A stretch of 64,000 nucleotides of DNA from positions 116,406 to 180,405 of IMG/VR virus record IMGVR_UViG_3300044712_002679; one strand, 5' to 3'. Shown here piece by piece: positions 3,122 through 51,197 of this stretch. Both the position numbers and the translations under genes were made by a program. Below the pieces are notes generated by a model. It did no database searches. It saw nothing but the letters and a program-made list of their open reading frames with translations, and was not told the DNA's origin. The stretch's first letter is position 1; each line of letters starts with the position of its first letter. Source of the stretch: a virus.

Positions 3122-3186
3122 AAAATAATTAAAGTTTATATTTATTTTATTTCAGAAATTTTTGATGTTAGAAATATGATTATGAA

Positions 3187-4569
3187 TTATATCGAACTTA
3201 TTTGATTGAATTTTTCTAATGCTATTTCCAAATTACCGAAGAATAGTTTTAATTTTTGATCGTTTTCTCTTAACATAATATGAATAATATTTTTTAATCC
3301 ATTATGTTCAAATAGTGTTTTTTCTAATAAATCTAAATCAAATGTCACAATGGCTTTATCAATATTCTTTTGAATTCTAAATGTATTCATAAATTTAATT
3401 TTATCTAAAATCTTTCTATGTCCATTGAAAAAATTATTAGCTTTTTCTAAAATATATTTAGGTGATAATTTTTTATCTTCACCTAAGTGATATGCCTTAC
3501 ACATCAATGCTATTTGTTCCAAATAAAAAATTAAAGATTCTGCATCATCTGACAATTCACCTTTCTTTTCAATATATTCTTTGATATTACTTAAATCACC
3601 ATCCAATTTAACAAATAAATTAAAATCTATTTTAATATTTTTTCTCGATACTATTGTAAGTGGTAAATTTTTTCCACCATAACTTAAAAATTTTTTAACA
3701 ACATCTAAGTATTCTTTTACTTCTTTTTCATCTTTCTTAATATTATAACCATCACAATATAAATAATTATTTCCTAACGAAAAAATTGGAGTGTAACTAA
3801 CATTGTTTATCAATTTTTTTTGAAAAAAATGAAACAATAAATCATCACCCCTATGATGTTCATCCGATCTAGCTATTGGTATAATATCTGATGTATTATG
3901 ATTAATCATAATATACCCGACATTATCATAATCACCCACATTTAATCCTTTACCAGAATTATTATTTAATATAATTTGAGTTTTCCAATCAGATACATTG
4001 GATATATCACCACTAATGTCTTGATATTTTTGAAGTTTTTCAGGTATTGTAAATTTTATACCCTCATTTATACCCTCATTTATACCCTCATTTACTTTGA
4101 TAAAATTATAATACCAATCTTCTAATTGAAATTCATTACTAAAATATTTAATGTTTTCAGGTTTAAAATTAACCATTTCCCGTCCTTTTATAATAATACC
4201 ATCATATCCCATTTTTTGTAATTCATCTTCAATTGTCGTATTATTAGAAAAATATCTTTTACTTTGTGGTACATTATGTTCTTTACAAAAATTATTAATC
4301 ATTACATTATATTCCCATATTTCCCAATCATTTAAAGTATTAAAAATTTTTGGTTTTTTTGGAATTGCATTAACAATAAAATATACTTTACCATATTGTT
4401 TAGCTAAATCTTTATTGGATAATGCTGCCGTGTATAATCCTCTACCTAACATAGCACCCGCATCATTTTCTAATCCAGCTTCTTTTATCCCACGAATAGT
4501 AACATTCTTTCGCTTCCACGATAAATATTCTTTCCTAGATTCATTATATTTAATAAATTCTGTAAACAT
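3187..4569 (-). CDS. hypothetical protein (460 aa) with EGIN tandem repeat
   Basis: long ORF; contains NEGINEGINEGI encoded by 12-bp DNA repeat at 4057-4092. Confidence 0.55.
   Translation of the reverse strand: MFTEFIKYNESRKEYLSWKRKNVTIRGIKEAGLENDAGAMLGRGLYTAALSNKDLAKQYGKVYFIVNAIPKKPKIFNTLNDWEIWEYNVMINNFCKEHNVPQSKRYFSNNTTIEDELQKMGYDGIIIKGREMVNFKPENIKYFSNEFQLEDWYYNFIKVNEGINEGINEGIKFTIPEKLQKYQDISGDISNVSDWKTQIILNNNSGKGLNVGDYDNVGYIMINHNTSDIIPIARSDEHHRGDDLLFHFFQKKLINNVSYTPIFSLGNNYLYCDGYNIKKDEKEVKEYLDVVKKFLSYGGKNLPLTIVSRKNIKIDFNLFVKLDGDLSNIKEYIEKKGELSDDAESLIFYLEQIALMCKAYHLGEDKKLSPKYILEKANNFFNGHRKILDKIKFMNTFRIQKNIDKAIVTFDLDLLEKTLFEHNGLKNIIHIMLRENDQKLKLFFGNLEIALEKFNQISSI
4057..4092. repeat. 12-bp tandem repeat x3 (tataccctcatt) inside CDS 3187-4569
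   Basis: three perfect copies read directly. Confidence 0.8.
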
Positions 4570-4889: not shown

Positions 4890-5091
4890 TCTATGTAAAG
4901 ATTGAATCTGCTAATGATAAAGGATATGAAGTTGAAAAATTTGAATTGGATTCCCACGTTTTTTATTTAATTCAAATTGGTGAAAAAGTTGATGTAAAAA
5001 TTAATTATGATAGGTATAATAATAAAACATCTGTTATGGGTATTGATGAATATTATTATCATAATTATTTAAATGACTATTGAATATTTTG

Positions 5092-5178
5092 TGTGCTAGG
5101 TGGGACTCGAACCCACGGTGAAGCTTACGCTTATCTGATTAAGAGTCAGGACCGTTCGCCAACTACGGATACTAGCAC
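5092..5178 (-). tRNA. class-II (long variable arm) tRNA with anticodon CUU and discriminator A73
   Basis: 7-bp acceptor GTGCTAG/CTAGCAC, T-arm GTGGG-TTCGAGT-CCCAC, anticodon loop CTCTTAA (U33, CUU, A37), 17-nt variable arm with AAGC/GCTT stem; 87 nt. Confidence 0.55.
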
Positions 5179-5186
5179 ATTTTTTG

Positions 5187-5258
5187 CAGGCTGACAAGGA
5201 TTCGAACCCTGATCTAGAGATTTGGAGTCACTTATGCTAACCGTTGCACCATCAACCT
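5187..5258 (-). tRNA. tRNA-Trp (CCA)
   Basis: acceptor AGGTTGA/TCAGCCT (one G-U), T-arm CAGGG-TTCGAAT-CCTTG, anticodon loop CTCCAAA; one U-U mismatch in anticodon stem. Confidence 0.65.
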
Positions 5259-5271
5259 ATTACATAACTAT

Positions 5272-5304
5272 AAAATGGCAGCAAATTCAATTTGCTGCCA
5301 TTTT
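5272..5304. other. perfect 14-bp-arm palindrome (AAAATGGCAGCAAATT-ca-AATTTGCTGCCATTTT) between two tRNA genes
   Basis: read directly; followed by T-run in the direction of tRNA transcription. Confidence 0.7.
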
Positions 5305-5307
5305 ATT

Positions 5308-5443
5308 GTGGAGAAAGAAGGATTCGAACCCCCGACACACGGCTCCCATTGCTTAGATTTTTGGTTTGCTGTGCATAATTTTTACTTTCGACAAATTACG
5401 TTTTTCTCTTTTTACGTTGCTCTACCAACTGAGCTATTTCTCC
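5308..5443 (-). tRNA. interrupted tRNA: canonical 5' acceptor/D-arm and T-arm/3' acceptor separated by ~60-nt AT-rich insert
   Basis: 5' GGAGAAA-TA-GCTCAGTTGGTAGAGC... and ...GGGGG-TTCGAAT-CCTTC-TTTCTCC-A pair perfectly as one acceptor stem; anticodon arm not resolvable. Confidence 0.5.
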
Positions 5444-5450
5444 ATTTTTT

Positions 5451-5948
5451 TTATTCAGGTAAATCCCAAATATAATACTTATCTTCTTTTTCATATATTG
5501 TATCACGAGGTTCCAAATCAATATCTTCCAAATATCCAATACAATTATGAAAATTAGCCGAATCTGTATGATTCCATCTACTGTAATCATCATGTGTTCT
5601 TTGAAAATATGTAGTCAAAAATGATTCAATATATCCATGGTGTACCAATAGTGAATTGCTTGTATAAAAACATATCTTATGACCATTAATTATAGCAAAT
5701 GAAAAATTTATGTATACTGGTAATGTTTCAGATTTAATTTTACCATTTCCGTTAATATTCAATTCTATTATATAATAAGACCACCCCCTACTTACTTCTT
5801 CCCAATTATATTTAGGATCATTGTGATAATCTTGCCACAAATTAAATCTTTCTTCACTTGTTGCTTCAACTATCCATTCTACATCTTCTAAATAAGAATT
5901 TCCTAACTTTTTGTGTAAATAATTCCTGTTGTTTAATCCTACATCCAT
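5451..5948 (-). CDS. hypothetical protein (165 aa)
   Basis: clean ORF between tRNA genes; no motif recognised. Confidence 0.5.
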   Translation of the reverse strand: MDVGLNNRNYLHKKLGNSYLEDVEWIVEATSEERFNLWQDYHNDPKYNWEEVSRGWSYYIIELNINGNGKIKSETLPVYINFSFAIINGHKICFYTSNSLLVHHGYIESFLTTYFQRTHDDYSRWNHTDSANFHNCIGYLEDIDLEPRDTIYEKEDKYYIWDLPE

Positions 5949-6011
5949 AATATCAAATTTAATGTTTGATATTTTTAGATATAAATAAATGAAAAGTTTA
6001 ATAATTTTTTG

Positions 6012-6104
6012 CGGAGAATGTCAGGCTCGAACTGACACACCAGATTACTCATCCGATGACAAGTTTTCAAAACTAGGACGATACCAATTTCGTTTTAATT
6101 CTCC
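6012..6104 (-). tRNA. tRNA-Ser (UGA)
   Basis: 93 nt, acceptor GGAGAAT/ATTCTCC + G73, anticodon loop TTTGAAA, long variable arm, T-arm GTCAG-TTCGAGC-CTGAC. Confidence 0.65.
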
Positions 6105-6108
6105 AAAG

Positions 6109-6182
6109 GGGTAAATTACAGATTCGAACTGTAACTAAGTGAACCACAATCACCCATGCTAACCATTAACACCAATTTACCC
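6109..6182 (-). tRNA. tRNA-His (GUG) with genomically encoded G-1 pairing C73
   Basis: G-1 + GGTAAAT/ATTTACC + C73, anticodon loop TTGTGGT, T-arm TACAG-TTCGAAT-CTGTA. Confidence 0.75.
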
Positions 6183-6185
6183 ATA

Positions 6186-6995
6186 TTACCAATTCATTTT
6201 TCTTCCTTTTTTCCAACCATTTAATAAATAATCATTTAAATCTTTTTTATTTATCTTGATACATTTTTTTTCATTTTCACATATTATCCAACATTTTCCA
6301 AATTGTGAATTCTTTTCACCTTTTTGGGATATTGAATTTGCTTGACCAATTTTTATTTTAGTTTCATCTGAATGTTTTCTATTAACCCAAAATGATATTA
6401 ATTCACCATTAATATATCGTTCATCATCTTTACTAACTAGCATCACCTTATCTATATTATCTTTAACTAGTACTAGTCCTTTGTGTATTGATATTAATTC
6501 ACCATTAATATATCGTTCATCAGTATTAAAAACATTAAAAATATTACCATCTTTATCTTTACATATAATTCTATTTTTTTGTATAGATATCAATTCACCA
6601 TTAATATATCGTTCATCATCTTTACTAACTTTCAAAATATTACCATCTACATCATTAACCACAATTTTATTTTGAAATATTGGTCTATATTTATCTAAAT
6701 TATTATTTATATAATACCAACCACCACTTCCACCCAAAGTTAAATTGTAATATTCTTTAGAATTAACCACATCTTCATTTACTAATTCTTTTTCTTTTTT
6801 TAACATATCTTCTTTAGATTTACAAAAATGCAATATAACTTTTTCAAAATTATCAACACCATATTTATTTATAGCATTTTTTAAATATTTACCCGACCCC
6901 ATATAATCATCAAAAATATTTTCTGTTACATGACAGCCAATATATTTTTTATTATTAATTTTATTGGTTATTTCATAAATAATATAATTTTTCAT
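6186..6995 (-). CDS. GIY-YIG homing endonuclease with C-terminal tandem ~22-aa repeats
   Basis: N-terminus KNYIIYEITNK...KYIGCHV...MGSGKYLKNAINKYG (GIY...YIG + catalytic block); start moved to internal ATG 6995 to avoid overlapping tRNA 7056-7132; repeats (ERYINGELISI) encoded by DNA repeats 6390-6665. Confidence 0.7.
   Translation of the reverse strand: MKNYIIYEITNKINNKKYIGCHVTENIFDDYMGSGKYLKNAINKYGVDNFEKVILHFCKSKEDMLKKEKELVNEDVVNSKEYYNLTLGGSGGWYYINNNLDKYRPIFQNKIVVNDVDGNILKVSKDDERYINGELISIQKNRIICKDKDGNIFNVFNTDERYINGELISIHKGLVLVKDNIDKVMLVSKDDERYINGELISFWVNRKHSDETKIKIGQANSISQKGEKNSQFGKCWIICENEKKCIKINKKDLNDYLLNGWKKGRKMNW
6390..6665. repeat. imperfect tandem DNA repeats (unit containing caccattaatatatcgttcatca) inside GIY-YIG gene
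   Basis: at least three near-identical ~35-bp blocks at ~6397, 6496, 6596. Confidence 0.65.
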
Positions 6996-7055
6996 AACTT
7001 TTTTATTTGTATATATTAAATAAAAAAGTTCGATTTTAGTTCGAATTAAATTTTT

Positions 7056-7132
7056 GGGTGAAAGACGGGGTACGATCCCGCAAAGTTCCTGGTTCACAGC
7101 CAGGCAAGTCTACCAATTCCTCTACAATCACC
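7056..7132 (-). tRNA. tRNA-His-like (anticodon GUG, G-1:C73) with A54/U58-swapped T-loop and two U-U acceptor mismatches; possibly degenerate
   Basis: anticodon arm CCTGG-CTGTGAA-CCAGG, T-arm GCGGG-ATCGTAC-CCCGT. Confidence 0.4.
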
Positions 7133-7142
7133 ATAATTATTG

Positions 7143-7214
7143 TCAACCAGATGGGATTCGAACCCACGTAAACCGTGATTCACAATCACGTCCCGAACAC
7201 CAAACACGGGTTGC
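7143..7214 (-). tRNA. tRNA-His-like (GUG) with E. coli-like T-arm GTGGG-TTCGAAT-CCCAT, G-1:A73, weak D-arm; possibly degenerate
   Basis: anticodon arm CGTGA-TTGTGAA-TCACG perfect; acceptor CAACCCG/CTGGTTG with one mismatch. Confidence 0.4.
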
Positions 7215-7222
7215 TGGAGGGG

Positions 7223-7308
7223 CGGAGAAAACAGGAATCGAACCTGCACCCCAGTTACCCGAGGAACGGTTTTCCAAACCGTTGCAGTACCATTATGCTT
7301 ACTTCTCC
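7223..7308 (-). tRNA. tRNA-Ser (GGA)
   Basis: 86 nt, acceptor GGAGAAG/TTTCTCC + G73, anticodon arm ACGGT-TTGGAAA-ACCGT, variable-arm hairpin CCTCGG/CTGGGG. Confidence 0.65.
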
Positions 7309-7535
7309 AATTTTTTAAATTTTTCTTTTAATTTTTCTTTTACTTCATCAGAAGTATAATACCATTTCATATTAATTTGCATTTCAGAAATGATAATTCC
7401 CCATTCTGCTTTTGCTGAAAATTGTGGTTTGTATTTAATTCTTTGATAAATAAATATAAATGGCACACATAAATACCAACGATATCTAATTATTCTTTCA
7501 ATTAAATTGCATTCTTGAAATCTTTTATTTTTCAT
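7299..7535 (-). CDS. hypothetical small protein (78 aa) within tRNA array
   Basis: ORF in tRNA-free gap; start assignment uncertain. Confidence 0.3.
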   Translation of the reverse strand: MKNKRFQECNLIERIIRYRWYLCVPFIFIYQRIKYKPQFSAKAEWGIIISEMQINMKWYYTSDEVKEKLKEKFKKLEK

Positions 7536-7554
7536 AATTTATACATTTTTTAGC

Positions 7555-7638
7555 GGAGAGAAAGGGGGTCGAACCCTCAAGCCGAATAAACGACCGACAG
7601 ATTAGCAATCTGCTCCAATACCATTATGGGACCTCTCC
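7555..7638 (-). tRNA. tRNA-Ser (GCU)
   Basis: acceptor GGAGAGG/TCTCTCC + G73, anticodon arm GCAGA-TTGCTAA-TCTGT, long variable arm. Confidence 0.65.
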
Positions 7639-7728
7639 AAAATCAGAATACATTTTGTGGGTTTGAACCACGTTAACAAAGTTTCAGTTTGTATTTTAAC
7701 CTTTTGTTTTTGCTGTGCGTATTCTTTG

Positions 7729-7801
7729 TGGGGTAGACTGGTTACGATCCAGTTCCTATGGATTTTCAGTCCACCGCAATGACCACATCTGCCACTACCC
7801 C
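7729..7801 (-). tRNA. tRNA-Phe (GAA) with A54/U58-swapped T-loop (ATCGTAA)
   Basis: acceptor GGGGTAG/CTACCCC + A73, anticodon arm GTGGA-CTGAAAA-TCCAT, T-arm ACTGG-ATCGTAA-CCAGT. Confidence 0.65.
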
Positions 7802-7810
7802 AATTATTTG

Positions 7811-7894
7811 CGGAGAAAAAGGGATTCGAACCCCCACACCAGTTTCCCGATTTCACTGTTTTCGAAACAGCTAACTACACCAATAGGCTTCTCC
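7811..7894 (-). tRNA. tRNA-Ser (CGA)
   Basis: acceptor GGAGAAG/TTTCTCC + G73, anticodon arm GCTGT-TTCGAAA-ACAGT, long variable arm. Confidence 0.6.
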
Positions 7895-8055
7895 AAGTTC
7901 AGAATACTTTTGTGACATCGAATCACGACAAATTTCAAGTTTGCTTTACCTTTTTTTGCTGTATGTATTCTTTTTTGTGGACTGTATCGGATTTGCACCG
8001 ATTGTTAGCATAATTACTTTTTTGGTTTGCTATGCTTCAAAAAGCAACAGCCCAT

Positions 8056-8676
8056 TTATTTTTTATATTTATTTTTATTTTTTCCACCATGTGTATCTAA
8101 TGTTGCATTACAATTTGGACATAATATTCTTAAATTTGTTAATCTATGATCATTATTTATCCCATTTATATGATCTAATATTAAACTTATATGTTTTCCT
8201 TTCCAATTTTCATCTTGTCCACACATTTCACACTTTCTTTTTTTTAATCCATCTTCATATAATCTTTCTTTCAAATGTGTTGTATTAAAATTGGAATTTT
8301 CAACTAATATTAATGATAAATCTATTTTTTTATTTAAATTTTTTATTTGAAATTCATATTTAATAAAATGATCAATATTTATATCATATTTTTTAATATA
8401 TTTTTTTAATGTGTTATAAGAAGAACCAAAATTATTAATATCTAATTTAATTAAACATTCTTTATATGTTTTTGAATTTTTAACAATTTCAATTAAATAA
8501 TCTTTTTCATATTTATTTTTTACACTATAATGTGCTTCTATTTTTAATTTTTTTCGTCTTTCCTCAATTGATCTTATTGATCTATCTAATTTAGTTAAAC
8601 AATATTTTAAACCATAAATAGGATAATTTTCAATCAATATATCATCTTCATTTTTTGTCCATTTTTTATTTTTCAT
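8056..8676 (-). CDS. HNH homing endonuclease
   Basis: C-terminal CEMCGQDENWKGKHISLILDHINGINNDHRLTNLRILCPNCN (Cys pairs + DH...N...H...N HNH core); located inside tRNA array. Confidence 0.75.
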   Translation of the reverse strand: MKNKKWTKNEDDILIENYPIYGLKYCLTKLDRSIRSIEERRKKLKIEAHYSVKNKYEKDYLIEIVKNSKTYKECLIKLDINNFGSSYNTLKKYIKKYDINIDHFIKYEFQIKNLNKKIDLSLILVENSNFNTTHLKERLYEDGLKKRKCEMCGQDENWKGKHISLILDHINGINNDHRLTNLRILCPNCNATLDTHGGKNKNKYKK

Positions 8677-8767
8677 TTTAAGTTATTTTTTGTAGTATAT
8701 ATAAATATTTTAAACTACAAAAAATCACTATGAACTATAAAAATTCAAAAAAATAGTTATGGGAATG

Positions 8768-8848
8768 CACGACAGAGAGGATTCGAACCCCTGAACCTTT
8801 CGGTATAGTTTTGGAGACTATCAGCTTTAACCACTTGCATACTGCCGT
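8768..8848 (-). tRNA. tRNA-Trp-like (CCA) with 12-nt extended variable region; D-stem poorly formed
   Basis: acceptor ACGGCAG/CTGTCGT, anticodon arm ATAGT-CTCCAAA-ACTAT perfect, T-arm AGGGG-TTCGAAT-CCTCT. Confidence 0.45.
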
Positions 8849-8867
8849 ATATTTTTGCGGAGGCGAA

Positions 8868-8951
8868 GGGAATCGAACCCCCAAATCATTACTGATTTAC
8901 TTGTTTTCAAGACAAGCCCCTCGTCCATTCGGACCACCTCCAAATACAATT
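8868..8951 (-). tRNA. tRNA-Ser (UGA), second copy
   Basis: acceptor GGAGGTG/CGCCTCC + G73, anticodon arm CTTGT-CTTGAAA-ACAAG, variable hairpin AAATCA/TGATTT. Confidence 0.65.
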
Positions 8952-9001
8952 TAAAAGATTGTTCGTTATTTTTTGCTGTATGTATTCTTTGTGGGGTGAG
9001 G

Positions 9002-9077
9002 TGGATTCGAACCACCATCCCTGGATTTTCAGTCCAGTGCGAAACTGACCAACTGCGCTACCACCCCAATAAGTATA
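9002..9077 (-). tRNA. tRNA-Phe (GAA), second copy, with enlarged D region (extra hairpin CAGT-TTCGC-ACTG)
   Basis: acceptor GGGGTGG/TCACCCC + A73, anticodon arm CTGGA-CTGAAAA-TCCAG, T-arm GGTGG-TTCGAAT-CCACC. Confidence 0.55.
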
Positions 9078-9094
9078 ACGTATGTGCGTCTGGT

Positions 9095-9167
9095 GGGTCA
9101 CGATCCCACGACTCCATCATTAAAAGTGATGTACTCTACCAACTGAGTTACAGACGCAAAAATATTC
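9095..9167 (-). tRNA. tRNA-Lys (UUU), canonical class I, A54/U58-swapped T-loop (ATCGTGA)
   Basis: acceptor GCGTCTG/CAGACGC + A73, D-arm ACTC-AGTTGGTA-GAGT, anticodon arm CATCA-CTTTTAA-TGATG. Confidence 0.75.
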
Positions 9168-9196
9168 AATATGTCAATGAACTTTAAAAAAAATTG

Positions 9197-9282
9197 TGAT
9201 CCCGATGGGACTCGAACCCATGTACAACTTTCGTATCCCACATTAAAAGTGTGGTGCCTCGTTCCAACTCGGCCACGGAATC
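9197..9282 (-). tRNA. class-II (long variable arm) tRNA with anticodon UUU and discriminator A73
   Basis: acceptor GATTCCG/CGGGATC (one G-U), 3-bp D-stem GCC/GGC, anticodon arm CCACA-CTTTTAA-TGTGG perfect, 16-nt variable arm, T-arm ATGGG-TTCGAGT-CCCAT. Confidence 0.55.
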
Positions 9283-9302
9283 AATAAATAAAGAACGTAA
9301 CA

Positions 9303-9345
9303 AAAAAAAATCCGAACTTTTTACGGTTCGGATTTTTCTGTTTTA
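9303..9345. terminator. bidirectional intrinsic terminator (ATCCGAAC...GTTCGGAT hairpin between A9 and T-run) bounding the tRNA array
   Basis: 8-bp inverted repeat read directly. Confidence 0.65.
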
Positions 9346-9583
9346 TCTTAATTAAAAATCAATTTATTTTGACTTATTAAGTAAGCATACGAAATCCGAA
9401 CCTGATCTATGTGACCAAAAGCTCTTAAAGGATTTACTATGTTTACTTACGTTTCTCATGATTTCTATTTTTTACTTTGTTTTACTTATATAGAAAATTA
9501 ATTCTATTTTGTTTATTTTTTCTTTTATATATTAACGTAAAAAAGTCATTTTTTTCTATTTTTGATTTTTGTGACTTTTCACG

Positions 9584-9640
9584 ATACAAATATACGCATT
9601 ATTTTTAATCTACCAAATTTTTTTAATGTTTTTTTTTAAA
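9584..9640. repeat. ~57-bp direct repeat copy 1 (acaaatatacgcattatttttaatctaccaaatttttttaatg...)
   Basis: near-identical second copy at 9824-9880 flanking a GC-richer core. Confidence 0.6.
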
Positions 9641-9823
9641 ATAATTAACAGAAAGAGTTTTAACCTTTCCGCAAGACTTTCGCAATAACTTTCTCAAGGT
9701 TGTTGTTAGTTCTTGTTTGTATCCAGTCTCTTATCCCCTTTGAGTTGGGTGTTTAGGTATTATAAGTGAACTCTCTTATAATCTTGCTTGGGCGCACATC
9801 CTAAACTTTACTTTTCAAATTCT

Positions 9824-9880
9824 TTACAAATATACACATTATTTTTTAATCACCAAATATTTTTCAATATTTTTTCAATT
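9824..9880. repeat. ~57-bp direct repeat copy 2
   Basis: acaaatatacacattattttttaatcaccaaatatttttcaatat, matches copy 1 with few substitutions. Confidence 0.6.
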
Positions 9881-9949
9881 AAATTCATTGGTTTACAATT
9901 GGTAATTGGCAAAATTACTAAAATTGGCAATAATAAATCAAATGTTTTT

Positions 9950-10270
9950 TCATTTATTTTTCATTTCGAATTCGAATGTTGCATCATATGATTCACAATA
10001 TCCTGGTTTATCGTAAGATATTTTCCAACCATAATCTCGATATAAGTCTTCAAAATCCATCCAATGATTTTTGTATATATGTTCACTTGTCATATGTTCG
10101 GGTGCAACTTTCATAATTTCTGTCATAATATCTTTTTGTCTTATCGTAAAACTAGATTTGACATAATTATTTTTAATTGCATTATTTATTCCGAGTATTA
10201 CAAAATCTGGAATATTACTTTTTGCTTCATTCCTAGCTTCTTCTGGTGTTATTGGCTTAATTTCTGACAT
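9950..10270 (-). CDS. hypothetical protein (106 aa)
   Basis: ORF heading a long minus-strand gene block. Confidence 0.45.
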   Translation of the reverse strand: MSEIKPITPEEARNEAKSNIPDFVILGINNAIKNNYVKSSFTIRQKDIMTEIMKVAPEHMTSEHIYKNHWMDFEDLYRDYGWKISYDKPGYCESYDATFEFEMKNK

Positions 10271-26190: not shown

Positions 26191-27068
26191 TTTTCTTCGA
26201 AATATGAAAATTTGTGTAATTTTTTAATAAAAATTTGACCTTGCTTGCGTATATAAGCTTCCACTTTTTTAATATTCTTATTATCAAAATATTTTCCAAT
26301 ATTATTTTTTTCTGTTTTAGATAATTCATCAAAATTAAAATTAAAATTACACATATCTTTATAATACTTAAGTGGATATTTATTTTCTTCTTCTTTTATT
26401 GTATTTAATAAATTTTTGGATTTTTTCACTTTAAGATAAAATTCGTGTAATCTTGCGGATAATTCATCTTCGTTTGCCAAGTAACAATAAACTAAAAATT
26501 TTTTATATGATTCAGAACCATCGGTTGTTGAAGTTAAATCAGTAATTGATGCGATACTACCAAATCTAACTTCATGTATAAATAAGTCAACAATATCACC
26601 CTTAAAAATGCGTTTAGTATCATCTGAAAAAAATTCATTTCGACTACGAGAATATAATATCTTACTTTTAATAGTTCTATCTACTAAATGTTTAATTTCG
26701 TGAGTTAATAGTTCTTTAGTATCATATTCTTTATTTTCAATACCCAACATTATATCAACATAATATTTATTTCTTTTGTTTTTTTGTTTTTTTGGTATAA
26801 TATTAACTGAAGCTATTGCTCGATTATAATATATACTAACTATAATATTACTTATAAAAACTAATTCTGTATTTTTTAATTGCCATGATCCATTAATATA
26901 AACTTCATTGGGCTTTAAAATATTTATATTAAATTCTGAAATATCAACAATTGTTTGGGTTTCTTTTTTATCAATCGCATCTTCAATTTGTTTCCACATT
27001 TTTTCGACAATTTCAAGTGTTAATTTATTTACACCCAATTTTTCAAATATTTTAAAAGTTGTTATCAT
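26187..27068 (-). CDS. hypothetical protein with HExxH motif (possible zinc metallopeptidase)
   Basis: ELLTHEIKHLVD. Confidence 0.4.
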   Translation of the reverse strand: MITTFKIFEKLGVNKLTLEIVEKMWKQIEDAIDKKETQTIVDISEFNINILKPNEVYINGSWQLKNTELVFISNIIVSIYYNRAIASVNIIPKKQKNKRNKYYVDIMLGIENKEYDTKELLTHEIKHLVDRTIKSKILYSRSRNEFFSDDTKRIFKGDIVDLFIHEVRFGSIASITDLTSTTDGSESYKKFLVYCYLANEDELSARLHEFYLKVKKSKNLLNTIKEEENKYPLKYYKDMCNFNFNFDELSKTEKNNIGKYFDNKNIKKVEAYIRKQGQIFIKKLHKFSYFEEN

Positions 27069-28588
27069 AATTCAATAATTTTGATTTTTTTCTTTTTACA
27101 CAATGAAATCAATTTTTCTTTATTTTCTTGGTCTGATTCAGATACTTTAAGATAGTTATCAGTTAATCTGATTTCTTTAATGTAATTTATTGGTATTTTA
27201 TTTGCATGAATTTGAATTTCCGAATATAAATTATAAAATCTATCCCCTTCGATAAATACTTTACCTTTACTTGTTTCAAAAACACGACCATCATTTTTAT
27301 GATTTAAATTTTCTAAAATTGTTTTTGATTCATATTTATATTCTGGATAAAATTTTTCTTTTACTAAATTTGAATAAATTTTTTTTAATTCTTTTTTCTT
27401 ATATATTGTATCCACATTTTCTGCCACACTATCCAATAATGTAAAAGTCACTTTAAATTTTTCATAAATAGATGGTTTAAAATATATCATAACCGAACCA
27501 TGACCAGTTTCATATCCACCATCATTAAACCAATCCGGAATACAAAATATCAAATCTTCTGTTCCAAATTTTTCAAGTTCAATTTCTTTTCTTTCATTCC
27601 ACCAAGTTTCATTTTCATCTATAATTTGAATTTCTTTTTTTAATTCATTTCTACTCATCAAAAATCCTTTTTCAAGTATTGATATTACGGATTCATATGA
27701 TGATAAGTGTCTAGCAAATGGATATTCATCATTTTCAGCATCATTTTCAGCATCATTTTCAGCATCATTTTCAGCATCATTTTCAGCATCATTTTCAGCA
27801 TCATTTTCAGCATCATTTTCAGCATCATTAAATAATATACCAATTCCTTGTATTTGATTATTATTAGTTTGATATGTAAATTCTTTATATATTTTACCTT
27901 CTTTAATTTCATTCCAAAATTTAACAACACCTGGACAAGTTGAATCGTTAATGTCATGAAACATAACGATTTTAGCATATTTACCCAAATTTTCATAATC
28001 GGTAGATACACCTTCATATGAATGATCAGCATCAATAAATATAAAATCATATTTTTGACCTTTAAAATCTTCACTTGTTCCTATATGTAAATTAATGTAT
28101 TGTTTTATATCTTCAGTTAATCCTTTATCTGAAATATCAACACCAATAGATTTTAAATTTGGATTTTTGAGTTTTAAAATATTATCAATTAATATATGGG
28201 TTCCACCTTTAAATATACCCACCTCAACATATGTATTTATATCATATTTCAACAATTCTAATAAAGCATCAGCTATTTGTTTTGGGGTTTGAAACATAGC
28301 TTCTTCGTTTCTATCATAAACCATATATTGATTCCATTCACCATAACCATCTCTATCTTCTACACATAAACCATAATCGCAAACTAAATTTATAATATCA
28401 ACTTCTTTAATATCGGTCGCATTTAATTTAGAAATACTTTCAATTAATTTTTTATTTTTACTAAATTTGTTATCTTCAAATATATTTATATTTTTGTGCG
28501 TGAAATCACTAAACCGTTTAATCATAATCAAAAAATCTATTTTACATATATATAAAAAAATTAAACAACATTCTAATAAAAAAAACAT
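27065..28588 (-). CDS. CmcI/TylF-type class I SAM-dependent O-methyltransferase domain protein with (ENDA)n repeat and C-terminal extension
   Basis: YVEVGIFKGGTHILIDN ... YDFIFIDADHSYEGVSTD ... HDI; ENDAENDA... from 12-bp repeat. Confidence 0.6.
   Translation of the reverse strand: MFFLLECCLIFLYICKIDFLIMIKRFSDFTHKNINIFEDNKFSKNKKLIESISKLNATDIKEVDIINLVCDYGLCVEDRDGYGEWNQYMVYDRNEEAMFQTPKQIADALLELLKYDINTYVEVGIFKGGTHILIDNILKLKNPNLKSIGVDISDKGLTEDIKQYINLHIGTSEDFKGQKYDFIFIDADHSYEGVSTDYENLGKYAKIVMFHDINDSTCPGVVKFWNEIKEGKIYKEFTYQTNNNQIQGIGILFNDAENDAENDAENDAENDAENDAENDAENDAENDEYPFARHLSSYESVISILEKGFLMSRNELKKEIQIIDENETWWNERKEIELEKFGTEDLIFCIPDWFNDGGYETGHGSVMIYFKPSIYEKFKVTFTLLDSVAENVDTIYKKKELKKIYSNLVKEKFYPEYKYESKTILENLNHKNDGRVFETSKGKVFIEGDRFYNLYSEIQIHANKIPINYIKEIRLTDNYLKVSESDQENKEKLISLCKKKKIKIIEL
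27727..27838. repeat. 12-bp tandem repeat (catcattttcag) x~9 inside CDS
   Basis: read directly; in-frame, encodes NDAE repeats. Confidence 0.85.
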
Positions 28589-36458: not shown

Positions 36459-37232
36459 TTATAATAAATTTGGGATGTGTATAAACACAGTTACTATTCT
36501 AGTTGTCGTCGTCGTTGTCGTAGGTGCTACGGTTGTCGTCGTCGTTGTCGTAGGTGCTACGGTTGTCGTCGTCGTTGTTATTGGTCTTCTAGTAGTTGTC
36601 GTCGTTGTTATTGGTCTTCTAGTAGTTGTCGTCGTTGTTATTGGTCTTCTAGTAGTTGTCGTCGTTGTTATTGGTCTTCTAGTAGTTGTTGTCGTTGTTG
36701 TTATTGGTCTTCTAGTAGTTGTTGTCGTTGTTGTTATTGGTCTTCTAGTAGTTGTTGTCGTTGTTGTTATTGGTCTTCTAGTAGTTTTTGGTCTATTTGT
36801 TATTATTTTTGATCTATTTACAGATGATAATAATACAATTGTTGTAGTAATTGTTGTAGTTGGAACAAAAATAAAATCAGATTCAAATATTCGTAAATTC
36901 ATAGTATGCCAATCTGTTGCTGTTTCTGAAAAAGCAAAAAATATATTTGTTCCTGTTGAATATTTAATTTTAGCTATTGAAATTATATAATAATTTAAAA
37001 ATTTATTTATTAATAAATAATTTGAATTATTATTTGATAAATATTGTACTAAATTTTTGCTATAACCCTTACCTCTTAAAGATAATGGAATTGTATTGAA
37101 ATCAATTTCAACTTCAGCTAAAAATGTGATATTATTTTTTTCAAAAAAATCAAATATATTAGAATATGTGCCAGATTTAAGTTTAAATTTAACATAATGA
37201 TCATTTAACCAACAATATCCAACATTTGTCAT
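36459..37232 (-). CDS. protein with GNAT-like N-terminal region (tentative) and Thr-rich (TTTTTTRRPI)n tail
   Basis: LRGKGYSKNLVQYL resembles GNAT motif A; tail encoded by ~33-bp DNA tandem repeats. Confidence 0.45.
   Translation of the reverse strand: MTNVGYCWLNDHYVKFKLKSGTYSNIFDFFEKNNITFLAEVEIDFNTIPLSLRGKGYSKNLVQYLSNNNSNYLLINKFLNYYIISIAKIKYSTGTNIFFAFSETATDWHTMNLRIFESDFIFVPTTTITTTIVLLSSVNRSKIITNRPKTTRRPITTTTTTTRRPITTTTTTTRRPITTTTTTTRRPITTTTTTRRPITTTTTTRRPITTTTTTRRPITTTTTTVAPTTTTTTTVAPTTTTTTTRIVTVFIHIPNLL
36503..36800. repeat. ~30-33-bp tandem repeats (gtcgtcgttgttattggtcttctagtagtt) x~9
   Basis: read directly; in-frame Thr-rich repeats. Confidence 0.85.
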
Positions 37233-40488: not shown

Positions 40489-41808
40489 ATGACAAAAACA
40501 GAAGAATTTATCCAAAAAGCGAAACTTGTTCACGGGGATAAATATAATTATTCTAAAGTCGAATATATTAATAATCACACTAAAGTTACTATTATTTGTC
40601 CAAAGCATGGTGAATTTAAACAACAACCAGCAAATCATTTAAATAATATGGGTTGTCCAAAATGTGTTGGCAATATAAAATTAACAACAACAGATTTTTT
40701 ATCAAAAGCAAAAGAAATTCATGGGGATAAATATGATTATTCAAAAGTTGAATATGTCGGAATATTTAATCACGTGAAAATAATTTGTCCAATTCATGGG
40801 GAATTTGAACAAACACCAAGACAACATCTTAAAGGTCGTGGGTGTTATAAATGTGGTGGTACACAAAAATATACACAAAATGAATATGTTATAAAAGCAA
40901 AGGAACTTCACGGGGATAAATATGATTATTCAAAAGTTAATTATTTGGGTGGTAGAAAAGATATAATTATAATTTGTCCTAAACACGGTGAATTTAAACA
41001 AAAAGCTGGTCAACATATACATGGTTCAGGTTGTCCAAATTGTGCTGGATTAGGGTTTATATTTCTATCATTTGAAGAAGCAAAAATTTTTGTTAAAAAT
41101 CTTAATTTACAAACACAAAATGAATGGCAAAAATATTGTAAATCGGGAAATAAACCTGATAATATACCAATAGCACCCGAAATTGTTTATAAAAAAGTTT
41201 GGATTAACTGGGGTGATTGGTTGGGTACATTTAAAATTTCAAATCAAAAAAAAGAATATTGGACATTTGAAGAAGCTAGAATATTTGTTAGAAATCTTAA
41301 TTTAAAATCAATAACAGAATGGAAAAGATATTGTAAAAATGAAAATAAACCTAGCAATATTCCAAATGATCCATACGGAACGTATAATAAATATGGTTGG
41401 TTAAATTGGGGTGATTTTTTAGGCTCATTTACATTAGCACCAAAAGATAGACAATATTTATCATTTGAAGAAGCAAGAAATTTTGTTAGAACACTTAATT
41501 TAAATTCAAAAGAAAAATGGGTAAATTATTGTAAATCGGGAAGTAAGCCTAACAATATTCCAAATGATCCATATAGTTATTATAAAGATGATGGTTGGAT
41601 TGATATGGGGGATTGGTTGGGTACATTTACAATTGCCCCACGATATAAACAATTAAATTATCTTTCAGAAGAAGAATTCATACAATTTATTAAAGATACA
41701 TTTCCAAATTTATATGGTGCTGAACTTCATAAAGCATATGAAGCTTGGTGGGATGAAAATAAACCAGAATATTTACCAAAGGATGTTGCTAAATATTATA
41801 ATAAATAA
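40489..41808 (+). CDS. repeat-family protein 1: 4 N-terminal Zn-ribbon modules + 5 x ~57-aa KSGNKP.NIP/WGDWLG repeats + conserved C-terminal tail
   Basis: modules HGDKYDYSKVEY..(K)V.IICP.HGEF.Q.P..HL.G.GCP.C x4; repeats (FEEAR.FVR.LNL.S...W..YCKSGNKP.NIP.DP...Y...GW..WGDWLGTF); tail LSEEEFIQFIKDTFPN...AYEAWWDENKPEYLPK. Confidence 0.7.
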   Translation: MTKTEEFIQKAKLVHGDKYNYSKVEYINNHTKVTIICPKHGEFKQQPANHLNNMGCPKCVGNIKLTTTDFLSKAKEIHGDKYDYSKVEYVGIFNHVKIICPIHGEFEQTPRQHLKGRGCYKCGGTQKYTQNEYVIKAKELHGDKYDYSKVNYLGGRKDIIIICPKHGEFKQKAGQHIHGSGCPNCAGLGFIFLSFEEAKIFVKNLNLQTQNEWQKYCKSGNKPDNIPIAPEIVYKKVWINWGDWLGTFKISNQKKEYWTFEEARIFVRNLNLKSITEWKRYCKNENKPSNIPNDPYGTYNKYGWLNWGDFLGSFTLAPKDRQYLSFEEARNFVRTLNLNSKEKWVNYCKSGSKPNNIPNDPYSYYKDDGWIDMGDWLGTFTIAPRYKQLNYLSEEEFIQFIKDTFPNLYGAELHKAYEAWWDENKPEYLPKDVAKYYNK

Positions 41809-41811
41809 TTT

Positions 41812-43515
41812 ATGTCAAAAAAACGACCTTTTTTATCATTTGAAAATGCTAGATTTTTTTCACGATCTATTAATTTAAAAAGTGGGAAAGAATGGAAAGA
41901 ATTTTGCAAATCAGGTAATAAGCCTGATAATATACCAACAAATCCATATGAAGTATACAAAAAAGAATGGATTAGTATGGGTGATTGGTTAGGGACATTT
42001 TCGGTTCATACTAAAAATTTTTTATCATTTAATGAAGCAAGAATTTTTGCTAGATCAAATAATTTCAAAAATAGAGAAGATTGGAAATTATATTGTAAAT
42101 CGGAAAATAAACCTAATAATATTCCGACAAATCCATATGAAGTATACAATAAAGAATGGATTAGTTGGGGGGATTGGCTAGGAACAAAAATAGGATTTGA
42201 AGGATTTTTATCATTTGAAGAAGCTAGAAATTATGTTAGAAATCTGAACTTAAAATCAAATAAAGAATGGTATAAATATTGTAAGTCAGGAGATAAGCCT
42301 GATAATATTCCATCTACACCAAATAAAAAATATAAAAATTGTGGTTGGACTAATTGGTATGATTGGTTTGGAACAAAAATTGAATTTGAAGGATTTTTAT
42401 CATTTGAAGAAGCTAGAAATTATGTTAGAAACCTGAATATAAAATCATCAAATGATTGGGCTAAATATTGTAAATCTGGAAATAAACCTAATAATATTCC
42501 AAGTAATCCACGTGAAGTATATAAAAATGAATGGAATGATTGGGGTGATTGGTTAGGAACATTTACTATATCAACACAAAACTATGTGTATTTATCATTT
42601 GATGATGCAAGAAATTTTGCTAGAAATCTTAATCTAAAAACACAAACATATTGGAGGAAGTATTGTAAATCGGGAAATAAACCTGATAATATACCAAGTG
42701 ATCCATCCAAAGGTTATAAAGATAAAGGTTGGCTTAGTTGGGGTGATTGGTTAGGTACAAAAATTGGATTTAATGGGTTTTTACCATTTGAAGATGCAAG
42801 AAATTTTGTTAGAAATCTTAATCTAAAAACCCAATATGAATGGAAAGTGTATCTTAATAGTGGAAACAAACCTAACAATATTCCAAATAAACCACGGGAT
42901 GTATATAAAGATTGGATTAGTATGGATGATTGGTTAGGTACTTTTGTGATATCAACCCATAAACAAAAATTTTTATCATTTGATGAAGCAAGAATATTTG
43001 TTAAAAATCTTAGATTAATCGGTAAAGATGATTGGTATAATTATTGTAAAAGCGGAAACAAACCAACGGATATTCCAACTACACCCAATACCGTTTATAG
43101 TGAATGGGTGGGTTGGGGTGATTGGTTAGGAACATATAATATAGCATCATTTGATAAAGAATTTTTATTGTTTAATGATGCGAGAAATATTATTAGAAAC
43201 AAAAATTTTAAAAATCAAAATGAATGGTTTGAATATTGCAAATCGGGAAATAAGCCAAAAAACATTCCAAGTGATCCATCAAAAACCTATATAAATGATT
43301 GGATTGATTGGGGTGATTGGTTGGGTACATTTACTATTGCAACCCAAAATAAACAATTAAATTATCTTTCAGAAGAAGATTTCATACAATTTATTAAAGA
43401 CACATTTCCAAATATTCCACCTGGAATTGAACTTCGCAAAGCATATGAAGCTTGGTGGGATGAAAATAAACCTGATTATTTACCAAAGGATGTTGCAGGA
43501 TACTACAATAAATAA
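41812..43515 (+). CDS. repeat-family protein 2: ~9 tandem ~57-aa repeats + conserved tail
   Basis: same repeat and tail as 40489-41808; 3-nt intergenic spacing. Confidence 0.7.
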   Translation: MSKKRPFLSFENARFFSRSINLKSGKEWKEFCKSGNKPDNIPTNPYEVYKKEWISMGDWLGTFSVHTKNFLSFNEARIFARSNNFKNREDWKLYCKSENKPNNIPTNPYEVYNKEWISWGDWLGTKIGFEGFLSFEEARNYVRNLNLKSNKEWYKYCKSGDKPDNIPSTPNKKYKNCGWTNWYDWFGTKIEFEGFLSFEEARNYVRNLNIKSSNDWAKYCKSGNKPNNIPSNPREVYKNEWNDWGDWLGTFTISTQNYVYLSFDDARNFARNLNLKTQTYWRKYCKSGNKPDNIPSDPSKGYKDKGWLSWGDWLGTKIGFNGFLPFEDARNFVRNLNLKTQYEWKVYLNSGNKPNNIPNKPRDVYKDWISMDDWLGTFVISTHKQKFLSFDEARIFVKNLRLIGKDDWYNYCKSGNKPTDIPTTPNTVYSEWVGWGDWLGTYNIASFDKEFLLFNDARNIIRNKNFKNQNEWFEYCKSGNKPKNIPSDPSKTYINDWIDWGDWLGTFTIATQNKQLNYLSEEDFIQFIKDTFPNIPPGIELRKAYEAWWDENKPDYLPKDVAGYYNK

Positions 43516-43518
43516 TTT

Positions 43519-44823
43519 ATGTCAAAAAAATTAACAACAGAAGAATTCATTATTAAAGCCAAAGGTGTTCATGGTGATAAATATGATTATTCTAAAGTTG
43601 ATTATGTTAATAATCATATTAAAGTTACTATTATTTGTCCAATACATGGTATTTTTGAACAAACACCAAGTAATCATTTACAAGGTAAGAATTGTATTAA
43701 TTGTGGTTCTTATAATCAATCTAATACCATAAAAAATAAAAATATATCATTTGAAGAATCAAGAAATTTTGTTAGAAATCTTAATTTGAAATCGCAAAAA
43801 GAATGGAATAAATATATTAAATCAGGTAATAAACCTGATAATATTCCAAGTATGCCAAATCGAATATATAAAAATAAAGGTTGGATTAGTATGGGTGATT
43901 GGTTAGGAACTTTTACAATAGCATCATATAAAAAAATTTTTTTACCATTTGAAGAAGCAAGAATTTTTGCTAGAAATCTTAATTTAAATTCACAAAAAGA
44001 ATGGTTAAAATATCGAAAATCTGATAATAAACCTGATAATATTCCAAGTAATCCATATAGTGTATATAAAAATGATGGTTGGTTATCATGGGGTGATTGG
44101 TTAGGAACAAAAAATGATTTTAATGGATTTTTACCATTTGATGATGCTAGAAATTTTGCTAGAAATCTTAATTTAAAACCATATGATAAATGGAAAAAAT
44201 ATTGTAAATCAGGAAATAAACCTAACAATATTCCAAGTAGTCCTGATAAAGTATATAAAAATAAAGGTTGGATTGATTTTGGTGATTGGTTAGGTTATAA
44301 AAAAGATTTTTTATCATTTGAAGAAGCCAGAACTTTTGTTAGAAATCTTAATTTAAAATCACAAAAAGAATGGATTGAATATTGTAAATTAGGAAATATG
44401 TTAGATAATATACCAAGTAATCCACAACATACTTATAAAAATAAAGGTTGGATTAGTTGGGGTGATTGGTTAGGCACATTTACTATTTATAAAAACAATT
44501 TTTTACCATTTGAAGAAGCAAGAATATTCGCAAGAAATCTTAATTTAAAATACAAAAAGAAATGGATTGATTATTGTAAATATGGTAATAAACCAAATAA
44601 TATTCCATCTGATCCATATCGTACATATAAAAATAATGGATGGGTTAGTTTTGGTAATTGGTTAGGTACTGAATATTTATCGGAAGAAGAATTCCAACAA
44701 TTTATTATTGATAATTTTTCAGATGTTCATCCTGATGATATGAATAAATTTTATGAAATATGGTGGAATGATAATCAACCAATTAATTTACCAAAATATC
44801 CAAAAGAATATTATAATAAATAA
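43519..44823 (+). CDS. repeat-family protein 3: 1 Zn-ribbon module + ~6 repeats + tail variant
   Basis: HGDKYDYSKVDYVNNHIKVTIICPIHGIFEQTP..HLQGKNCINC then repeats; tail LSEEEFQQFIIDNFSDVHPDDM. Confidence 0.7.
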   Translation: MSKKLTTEEFIIKAKGVHGDKYDYSKVDYVNNHIKVTIICPIHGIFEQTPSNHLQGKNCINCGSYNQSNTIKNKNISFEESRNFVRNLNLKSQKEWNKYIKSGNKPDNIPSMPNRIYKNKGWISMGDWLGTFTIASYKKIFLPFEEARIFARNLNLNSQKEWLKYRKSDNKPDNIPSNPYSVYKNDGWLSWGDWLGTKNDFNGFLPFDDARNFARNLNLKPYDKWKKYCKSGNKPNNIPSSPDKVYKNKGWIDFGDWLGYKKDFLSFEEARTFVRNLNLKSQKEWIEYCKLGNMLDNIPSNPQHTYKNKGWISWGDWLGTFTIYKNNFLPFEEARIFARNLNLKYKKKWIDYCKYGNKPNNIPSDPYRTYKNNGWVSFGNWLGTEYLSEEEFQQFIIDNFSDVHPDDMNKFYEIWWNDNQPINLPKYPKEYYNK

Positions 44824-44877
44824 AATAAAAATTTTTTAAAAAACTTACAATAAATTTGCTTTTTCGTAATAAAAACT

Positions 44878-44885
44878 TATATTTG
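44878..44885 (+). promoter_or_regulatory. TATATTTG promoter-like element upstream of 44914
   Basis: TAnnTTTG. Confidence 0.4.
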
Positions 44886-44913
44886 CACAATGTTTAATTA
44901 AAAATATAAGTTT

Positions 44914-46670: not shown

Positions 46671-46673
46671 AAA

Positions 46674-50097: not shown

Positions 50098-50376
50098 ATT
50101 AAAAATATGAAAGAAGATGAAAAAAGTGTAATTGGGGATTTCACAATAAACATTGTGTTATATATTATGATATTAAAACCTGTATTAAAACTAAAACCAG
50201 GTTTTTGGGAATATCTAAAGGAATCTGATTATTTGGATAAAATATGTTATATAGAAAACGATCAAACGATTTATTTTAATTGATGGAATATATTTTAAAG
50301 AATAAATTAGTATATGTTTAGCATGTTTTAATGATATAAGAATTGCACATAATTATTTAAATGATACGAATTAAAA

Positions 50377-51119: not shown

Positions 51120-51197
51120 ATTTTTTTGTCAATTTTTTGCATAATTAAAATATCTTATTTATGTTTGTGTGTTATAGAAAATGTATAAAGATATATT

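Follow-up and report, generated by a model that had tools for sequence, protein, structure and literature searches.

In the Escherichia coli amino-acid operons headed by trpL, hisL, pheL, thrL or leuL, a short leader open reading frame (ORF) carries a run of regulatory codons, four RNA segments form mutually exclusive hairpins (1:2, 2:3 and 3:4), an intrinsic terminator lies directly before the genes, and the choice is made by a ribosome that stalls when a charged tRNA is scarce. The E. coli pheST operon, part of the translation apparatus, is also preceded by a leader peptide (pheM) rich in the cognate codon, and the T-box riboswitches of Firmicutes sense tRNA charging and choose between a terminator and an antiterminator at translation-related genes. 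This work deals with a comparable region in a 64,000-nucleotide (nt) stretch of viral DNA (IMG/VR record IMGVR_UViG_3300044712_002679, positions 116,406 to 180,405; referred to below as the window and numbered from its first letter), which lies upstream of an array of tRNA genes on the minus strand. Its sequence makes it quite probable that this is the transcriptional control region of the phage tRNA array, composed of two promoters (P1 and P2), a core RNA and a trp-type leader-peptide attenuator; the tRNAs of the array would probably be made only when they are running short.

The leader ORF, codon run, alternative hairpins and position of the terminator are those of the E. coli amino-acid operons, and the same stalling logic would apply. 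Unlike in those operons, the targets are tRNA genes rather than biosynthetic enzymes, with a product that would act directly back on its own sensor; the leader combines codons for five amino acids, in keeping with the several isotypes of the array; and the system is encoded by a phage with a predicted Bacteroidota host, with no Rfam or sequence similarity above threshold. It differs from pheST in its target, a tRNA array rather than an aminoacyl-tRNA synthetase, and in its phage setting. T-boxes recognise uncharged tRNA by direct binding and work without an ORF, whereas here specificity would lie in the codons. The E. coli tRNA-Phe genes pheV and pheU are reportedly preceded by tandem promoters and an attenuator-like leader (work said to date from 1985, by Caillet, Plumbridge and Springer), which, if so, would be a precedent for attenuating a tRNA gene; those genes are of a single isotype and lie on a bacterial chromosome, whereas the present leader, with its mixed codons, precedes a multi-isotype phage array and recurs as a regulon. 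The tRNA cluster of phage T4 is accompanied by the small stable RNAs species 1 and 2 (rnaC and rnaD), transcribed together with the tRNAs or beside them, a likeness to the small structured RNA predicted alongside the present cluster; we know of no leader-peptide attenuator in T4. According to a 2010 survey, Proteobacteria and Actinobacteria were the only groups with demonstrated leader-peptide systems, apart from the survey's own new Firmicutes cases and the atypical ermC leader (PMC2965389). Full-text literature searches yielded no description of phage tRNA arrays, or of phage aminoacyl-tRNA synthetase genes, under leader-peptide attenuation. The mechanism class is classical, while its use on multi-isotype phage tRNA arrays with array-mirroring mixed-codon leaders appears to be new, as does its recurrence as a regulon among huge phages whose expression signals are of the Bacteroidota type.

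A candidate attenuator before the tRNA array

Positions 9283-9949 (667 base pairs, bp) contain no tRNA gene and no ORF of at least 60 amino acids, and form the longest gene-free stretch of the window, as a first-pass annotation made from the sequence alone had noted. Around it, the minus strand carries all genes plus 14 tRNA genes (5091-9282). The elements of the predicted attenuator and its target are as follows.

9540-9580, minus strand: 5′ stem-loop of the predicted P2 transcript, GAAAAGUCA...UGACUUUUU, then A-rich UUAAUAUAUAAAAGAA (minimum-free-energy fold)
9364-9459, minus strand: leader-peptide ORF of 31 codons, MRNVSKHSKSFKSFWSHRSGSDFVCLLNKSK, recognised by its codon run and conserved motif
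9430-9449, minus strand: region 1, the 5′ strand of the anti-antiterminator, inside the regulatory codons; 17 of 20 positions pair with 9378-9397
9378-9402, minus strand: region 2, which pairs with region 1 through its 3′ part and, through its 5′ part, GGUUCGGAUUU (9402-9392), with the 5′ arm of the terminator
9298-9337, minus strand: intrinsic terminator (regions 3 and 4), AAAAAUCCGAAC-CGUAAAAA-GUUCGGAUUUUU, then a U-run
5091-9282, minus strand: tRNA array, the predicted regulated unit (ARAGORN, Rfam, PHROGs)

The array reads Lys(ttt) twice, Phe, Ser(tga), Trp, Ser(cga), Phe, Ser(gct), Ser(gga), His four times, Trp and Lys(ctt); the 14 tRNAs called by ARAGORN all belong to five isotypes (Ser, Lys, His, Phe and Trp). 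The short leader ORF contains a codon run cognate to these same five: the segment SKHSKSFKSFWSH (9447-9409) is made of 13 consecutive residues that are all Ser, Lys, His, Phe or Trp, a residue set fixed beforehand by the tRNA isotypes of the array. This run was unique in the six-frame translation of the window, where the next longest measured 8 residues and 0.0055 runs of this length were expected. Over the whole leader, 19 of 30 residues fell within the set (binomial P = 4e-5, with a background of 0.274 that is the six-frame fraction of the phage genome LR745206.1; that of the window itself is 0.278). The match extends to the codons: the leader Ser codons AGT, AGC, TCC, TCA and TCG correspond to the array anticodons gct, gga, tga and cga, and its Lys codons AAA and AAG to ttt and ctt.

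Three pairings can be drawn for the leader RNA. The 1:2 hairpin (9449-9430 with 9397-9378; 17 of 20 pairs, -24.2 kcal/mol) has its 5′ strand within the regulatory codons and was also found in the RNAalifold consensus of 11 leaders. Its arms are the two halves of a 20-nt inverted repeat with 85% complementarity, which the first-pass annotation had listed merely as short repeats of the TTTACTT type. That annotation had overlooked the 31-codon ORF (9459-9364), the complementarity of 9392-9402 to 9325-9335 (11 of 11) and the coherence of all features on the minus strand. The predicted attenuator at 9298-9459 is the most informative element of the region. The segment GGUUCGGAUUU is a copy of the 3′ arm of the terminator; the resulting 2:3 antiterminator (9402-9392 with 9335-9325; 11 of 11 pairs, -23.1 kcal/mol) would exclude the terminator. 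The 3:4 terminator hairpin (9337-9306; 13 pairs, -15.8 kcal/mol), followed by U9, is situated between the ORF and the genes and ends 16 nt before the first tRNA (tRNA-Lys). The stop codon (9366-9364) lies 12 nt past region 2, or directly past it in L022, a close variant of the region, a placement in which a ribosome finishing the ORF would cover region 2. Without a ribosome, the minimum-free-energy fold of the full leader has both the 1:2 hairpin and the terminator formed. Among the Rfam leader families, which included Trp_leader, Thr_leader, Phe_leader and L20_leader, the best scores were 16-29 bits, driven by the terminator, against thresholds of 41-90, and no T-box riboswitch was matched at the gathering threshold in the window or at E<=10 in 9250-10000.

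While the ORF, the codon run, regions 1-4 and the alternative pairings can be read directly from the sequence, the way they would regulate is what we infer from them. Initiation at P2, or read-through from P1, would yield a leader of ~280 nt working like the trp, his and pheST attenuators. If this leader were left untranslated, or translated smoothly to the stop codon just past region 2, the 3:4 hairpin would form and transcription would stop. If charged tRNA-Ser, -Lys, -His, -Phe or -Trp were scarce, a ribosome would stall in region 1, region 2 would be free to pair with region 3, no terminator would form, and RNA polymerase would read into the array of those very tRNAs. Production of the phage tRNAs would thereby be tied to demand through a feedback loop.

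Related leaders in other phages and before other genes

Six further AT-rich phage contigs of IMG/VR (L041, L042, L044, L046, L047 and L048) were identified when viral contigs were searched with the pattern of the terminator hairpin. In all six, the hairpin lies directly before a Lys/Trp/Ser/Phe/His tRNA array and is preceded by an ORF containing ...KHSKSFKFWS..., a motif conserved in nine further leaders. In L041 (upstream of 3176-3319, minus strand) and L048 (8910-9058 and 9078-9219), two leader-plus-terminator units stand in tandem before the same array, an arrangement that, judging from the sequence, would amount to double attenuation. The same hairpin was found in LR745206.1, a 634-kb genome of an uncultured phage, before a His-Phe-His-Phe-Trp-Lys4-Arg-Ser array; the leader there is more diverged (MTTNSTHKNFSKSHKWFSNQSFG...) and includes STHKNFSKSHKWFS. 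The 5′ hairpin followed by TTTTTAATATATAAGAA recurs in the LR745206 leaders and in the family loci. The GTTCGG of region 2 was invariant in 11 of the 11 aligned leaders though it lies outside the search pattern, and an 8-bp antiterminator core can form in 10 of them; in one, L048b, a G-C pair is replaced by a compensatory A-U.

Leaders with other codon sets precede other genes. In the relatives L014, L017 and L020, the leader MKKLRQNMIMIQRQQINVGCVI (...LRQ...QRQQ...) and a terminator are followed by tRNA-Arg(acg), tRNA-Arg(tct) and tRNA-Gln(ttg), which match its codons AGA, CGA and CAA. LR745206.1, whose genome holds 59 tRNAs, contains the following candidates.

MTTMNLNMTMNLTLNVVNITLCNIR..., with 29 of 37 residues in the set after the initial Met: before 19 tRNAs (Asn, Arg, Leu, Val, Ile, Thr, Met)
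...PVNPQPQDQDP...: before a Pro-Asp4-Pro-Gln3 array
...SYESYYEEG...: before a Glu/Tyr/Ile/Gly/Met array
...TSKSSSRSSS...: before tRNA-Arg and tRNA-Ser
MKTMTINNRNRLTDII (key part INNRNR): before the genes for an asparaginyl-tRNA synthetase (AsnRS) and an arginyl-tRNA synthetase-like (ArgRS-like) protein
MNTNTTFNFFFSHKMV (key part FNFFF): before a PheS-related ligase gene
MKTINLNNLVVVNVSV (key part LVVVNV): before a gene for a valyl-tRNA synthetase-like (ValRS-like) protein

Several of these leaders have a copy of the terminator 3′ arm inside or just past the ORF, and pheM at pheST has direct counterparts in those that precede the PheS-like, ValRS-like and AsnRS/ArgRS-like genes. Binomial P values ranged from 4e-5 to 0.02 across the eight leaders tested; SYESYYEEG and TSKSSSRSSS were found later and stand outside these eight. 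For the small sets (RQ, DPQ, NR, F and V), the cognate leader had the highest in-set fraction among the leaders compared. On balance, we favour the view that huge phages of Bacteroidota may run an attenuator regulon over their own translation apparatus, the leaders spelling out either the isotypes of an array or the amino acid of the synthetase itself.

Promoters, the GC-richer core and competing explanations

Two direct repeats flank a core that is richer in GC than its surroundings (GC 0.38-0.39 in 9650-9799, against 0.17-0.27 on either side). Both observations had been made in the first-pass annotation; the repeats, given there as 57 bp (9584-9640 and 9824-9880), were found to span 51 nt (9585-9635 and 9825-9875), 80% identical and 240 bp apart. 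The features of this part are as follows.

9827-9857, minus strand: promoter P1, with TTTG at 9857-9854 (-33), TATATTTG at 9834-9827 (-7) and a 19-nt spacer, within the repeat 9825-9875
9587-9617, minus strand: promoter P2, TTTG-N19-TATATTTG, a duplicate of P1 within the repeat 9585-9635
9636-9820, minus strand: core, a predicted structured RNA of ~180 nt or the 5′ module of the P1 transcript (GC content, RNAalifold)
9665-9700, minus strand: three phased repeats, reading CUUGAGAAAG / UUGCGAAAG / CUUGCGGAAAGG
9638-9672, minus strand: terminator-like hairpin ending the core, a stem-loop (9672-9648) followed by the T-rich tract UAAUUAUUUU

The Bacteroidota sigma-A promoter consensus is TTTG (-33), N19 and TAnnTTTG (-7). 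It is said to go back to Bayley and colleagues in 2000 and Chen and colleagues in 2007. P1 and P2 show these elements at a spacing of ~19 nt with a same-strand unit downstream, and the pattern TTTG-N18-20-TAnnTTTG was matched 12 times in the window against 4.0 expected. As read from their sequence, the flanking repeats are two copies of one Bacteroidota-type promoter, predicted to fire toward the array. The idea of a strong promoter hub for the tRNA array thus came closest to the truth among the earlier proposals, in that both repeats perfectly match a Bacteroidota-type promoter on the minus strand, aimed at the array. When the region was compared by BLAST with 50,697 phage records, the promoter repeat was the only part that matched. 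P2 was ~80% identical to two other sites. One is the promoter of LR745206.1 that stands before the asnS leader and the asparaginyl-tRNA synthetase gene; the other is intergenic, in a gap within a same-strand gene block of the Elizabethkingia phage TCUEAP1, a Flavobacteriia phage. The extended promoter motif was also present upstream of LR745206 leaders. In L016, another close variant, P1 is kept and P2 is destroyed by a 20-bp deletion; L022 and L024 are without P1, their core starting directly after the stop codon of the upstream gene. Either promoter can therefore be lost among close variants.

Some further observations concern promoters. Between the stop codon of the upstream 106-amino-acid gene and P1, three AATTGG(T/C)AA motifs were seen at 9899-9937, including a direct repeat (9904-9917 and 9922-9935); they may be an operator or an upstream element of P1. 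Tandem promoters around a short element recur in LR745206.1 (387508-387643, 342121-342323 and 419956-420080), and two of these short elements have the motif AACGATTCAGATACAAA(A)TCT in common. The second-longest ORF-free gap of the window (50098-50690, 593 bp) contains a Bacteroidota-type promoter match at 50483-50514, and another lies just past it at 51136-51167 (plus strand).

Transcription from P1 would first produce the ~180-nt structured core RNA, ending at its weak hairpin terminator (9 pairs, three of them G-C, and weak compared with the main terminator). In the predicted structure, a 5′ domain with an outer stem (9806-9800 with 9757-9751) encloses hairpins 9796-9785 and 9782-9759; a CA-rich single strand forms the centre (~9720-9698), and the 3′ domain holds the three repeats, the third of which is the 5′ arm of the terminator-like hairpin. 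RNAalifold applied to the window, L016 and L022 gave 43 pairs in the core. All three one-sided substitutions in the helices stay paired as G-U on the minus strand and would give C·A on the plus strand. Single-sequence folding favoured the plus strand (z = -3.2 against -0.7), a choice rejected as misleading, since the substitutions favour the minus strand. By eye, one core hairpin changes from CCC...GGG to CUA...UGG in L022; it lies outside the RNAalifold consensus. The earlier suggestion of a small structured non-coding RNA bracketed by promoter and terminator-like repeats is thereby borne out in part: the core does resemble a minus-strand structured RNA made from P1, with its own hairpin and T-rich tract at the end, but the downstream repeat reads as a second promoter, not a terminator.

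The core was narrowly distributed. It matched no Rfam family, whether in the window at the gathering threshold or in 9250-10000 at E<=10, and a profile search of LR745206, L041-L048 and the remainder of the window with nhmmer found no homologue. An exact 19-mer from its 5′ end had no match in viral contigs, and a 20-mer had one true homologue in metagenome contigs, L024, which is identical to L022; matches in L023 and L025 were dismissed as chance hits in GC-rich DNA. Other family loci have unrelated segments of 60-150 nt at this position, between the promoter and the conserved start of the leader, and in LR745206 the unrelated segment sits between tandem promoters. The core is thus most likely a lineage-specific variable 5′ module or small RNA that is nonessential to the switch. 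A possible, if less likely, alternative is that it is a stable small RNA acting in trans, like T4 species 1 and 2, without any role in the control of the array. It has a promoter of its own and a terminator-like end, its structure is backed by the G-U-preserving substitutions, and the CA-rich single strand could act as a seed; however, a search for antisense targets within the window gave only chance-level blastn-short matches, the core of L022 and L024 would, with P1 missing, be part of the 3′ untranslated region of the upstream gene, and the segments that replace it in other family members are of variable length and lie inside the leader transcript.

That no attenuation takes place seems unlikely. 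Under that explanation, the hairpin at 9337-9306 would only terminate a non-coding or small-protein transcript from P2, the ORF would be a chance ORF or a real small protein, and the array would be transcribed by read-through or from unrecognised promoters. The hairpin is indeed a good stand-alone terminator, and AT-rich genomes yield many spurious ORFs rich in Lys, Phe and Ser. Covariation in support of the antiterminator is also weak: its one compensatory pair was matched by 93 of 500 shuffles, because the stems of the family hardly vary and its members are closely related. Further points weigh against attenuation. The invariance of the terminator among the contigs follows from the pattern used to find them; in L022, both the 1:2 and the 2:3 pairing lose strength through a pair of uncompensated region-2 substitutions; in LR745206, the 2:3 pairing comprises only ~6 bp, and the leader candidate before its gene for a histidyl-tRNA synthetase-like protein, MRALHTYKITIDLG, showed no convincing match and was not counted. 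The last regulatory codon (His, 9411-9409) is 7 nt from region 2, so close that stalling on it might leave the antiterminator covered by the ribosome; the leader ATG lies ~120 nt from the predicted P2 start; and attenuation does not explain the core RNA. We know of no experimental evidence for transcription-translation coupling or leader-peptide attenuation in Bacteroidota. On the other side, the 13-residue run occurs nowhere else in the window, and the match between leader and isotypes recurs with different amino-acid sets at at least eight independent loci. The 16 nt between the terminator and the first tRNA leave no room for a promoter. In L022 and L048a, the C-terminal half of the peptide, past FKFWS, is frameshifted or unconserved, but the RNA element GGTTCGGA persists; this pattern fits a leader peptide and argues against a functional protein.

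The phased repeats of the core invite two other explanations. They had been described as three copies of CTTTC(C/G/T)CAA; two exact matches to CTTTCBCAA, the only ones in the 64 kb, were confirmed at 9677 and 9689, 12 bp apart, whereas the third copy (9665-9676) has a 1-nt insertion. Read on the minus strand as UUGNG(G)AAAG, they might bind an RNA-binding protein that blocks the core terminator hairpin and allows read-through of transcripts from P1, a protein-mediated control of the HutP or TRAP kind. Their 11-12-nt phase, the position of the last one within the terminator-like hairpin and their near invariance in three variants (unchanged in L016, one change in L022) while the core centre varies would suit such a protein, but no candidate protein is known, the three variants are all close relatives, RNAalifold puts the repeats in ordinary helices, the hairpin is weak and the core is lineage-specific, all of which makes this quite improbable. 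A replication origin, as proposed in the first-pass annotation, in which the repeats would be initiator-bound iterons and the AT-rich flanks an unwinding element, is very improbable: three 9-10-nt repeats phased at 11-12 bp and local to the site, AT-rich flanks and the longest gene-free stretch of the window speak for it, but the units are few and far shorter than iterons (typically 17-22 bp, in at least four copies), the cumulative GC skew of the 64-kb window passes 9.5 kb without inflection and has its minimum at ~39-40 kb, at the gene-strand switch, the core with its triplet is missing at the homologous position in six related contigs and LR745206, its substitutions preserve minus-strand RNA pairs, and the flanking repeats are accounted for as promoters.

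The tRNA array, its surroundings and the role of phage tRNAs

The window is AT-rich, with a GC content of about 25%. The 106-amino-acid protein encoded next to the control region (9950-10270) is present, identical in sequence, on a 501-kb metagenomic contig, and the window is therefore a piece of a huge phage genome. When loci encoding this protein were searched for, its gene proved widespread in a mosaic neighbourhood, the control region being common only to L016 and L022/L024. Loci L004, L005 and L006 (6309-7661) encode a homologue of the protein together with a tmRNA and a pair of tRNAs whose anticodon, CTA, is of the amber-suppressor type; they belong to an unrelated GC-rich phage and were set aside. 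In relatives of the window phage (L014, L015 and L017), the neighbouring genes encode SmpB, RtcB, ClpP, an ECF-like sigma factor and a 5′-nucleotidase (NT5C); the lineage therefore has an extensive translation and RNA-repair toolkit.

The array is interrupted by homing-endonuclease genes (PHROGs): HNH and homing-endonuclease genes at 8056-8676 and 6186-7097 (minus strand) split it into blocks. The leader peptide names isotypes of blocks beyond these insertions, which suggests that the array was once contiguous. A 135-nt tRNA called by Rfam at 5308-5443 (minus strand) was missed by standard ARAGORN; with the intron option, ARAGORN reported a tRNA-Leu(aag) with a 55-nt insertion, its isotype being uncertain. 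Elsewhere in the window, five consecutive ORFs (40489-47426, plus strand) are made of at least 26 copies of a ~190-bp unit (~63 amino acids, 60-85% identical) with conserved WGDWLGTF- and FEEAR.F.R.LNLK-like motifs, and the first of them matches HNH/endonuclease PHROGs. A perfect 12-bp tandem repeat, CATCATTTTCAG, occurs in ~10 copies at 27703-27846, inside an ORF of 507 amino acids (27065-28588, minus strand) with a weak DNA-methyltransferase match, and a ~30-bp tandem repeat in ~11 copies at 36472-36867, inside the ORF 36459-37232 (minus strand).

Why phages carry tRNA genes, and how these are expressed, is a long-standing question. The genes have been proposed to compensate for codon usage, to replace host tRNAs that have been degraded, or to evade defences that cleave tRNAs. 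Leader codons that list the isotypes of an array imply that its expression follows a slowdown in the decoding of those very codons, and the link between codons and array provides a sequence-only rule for finding regulated tRNA arrays and aminoacyl-tRNA synthetase genes in metagenomic phages. If the proposed attenuation is correct, the range of classical ribosome-mediated attenuation would widen to include phages, expression signals of the Bacteroidota type and RNA-gene targets, and mixed-codon leaders would be multi-input sensors. The phage would sense stalling codon by codon and turn on exactly the limiting tRNAs or synthetases, possible triggers being host tRNA degradation, cleavage by anticodon nucleases or a codon demand of the AT-rich phage that outstrips supply. 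Phage tRNA arrays would then be inducible, self-limiting modules for supply and counter-defence, not constitutive patches for codon usage.

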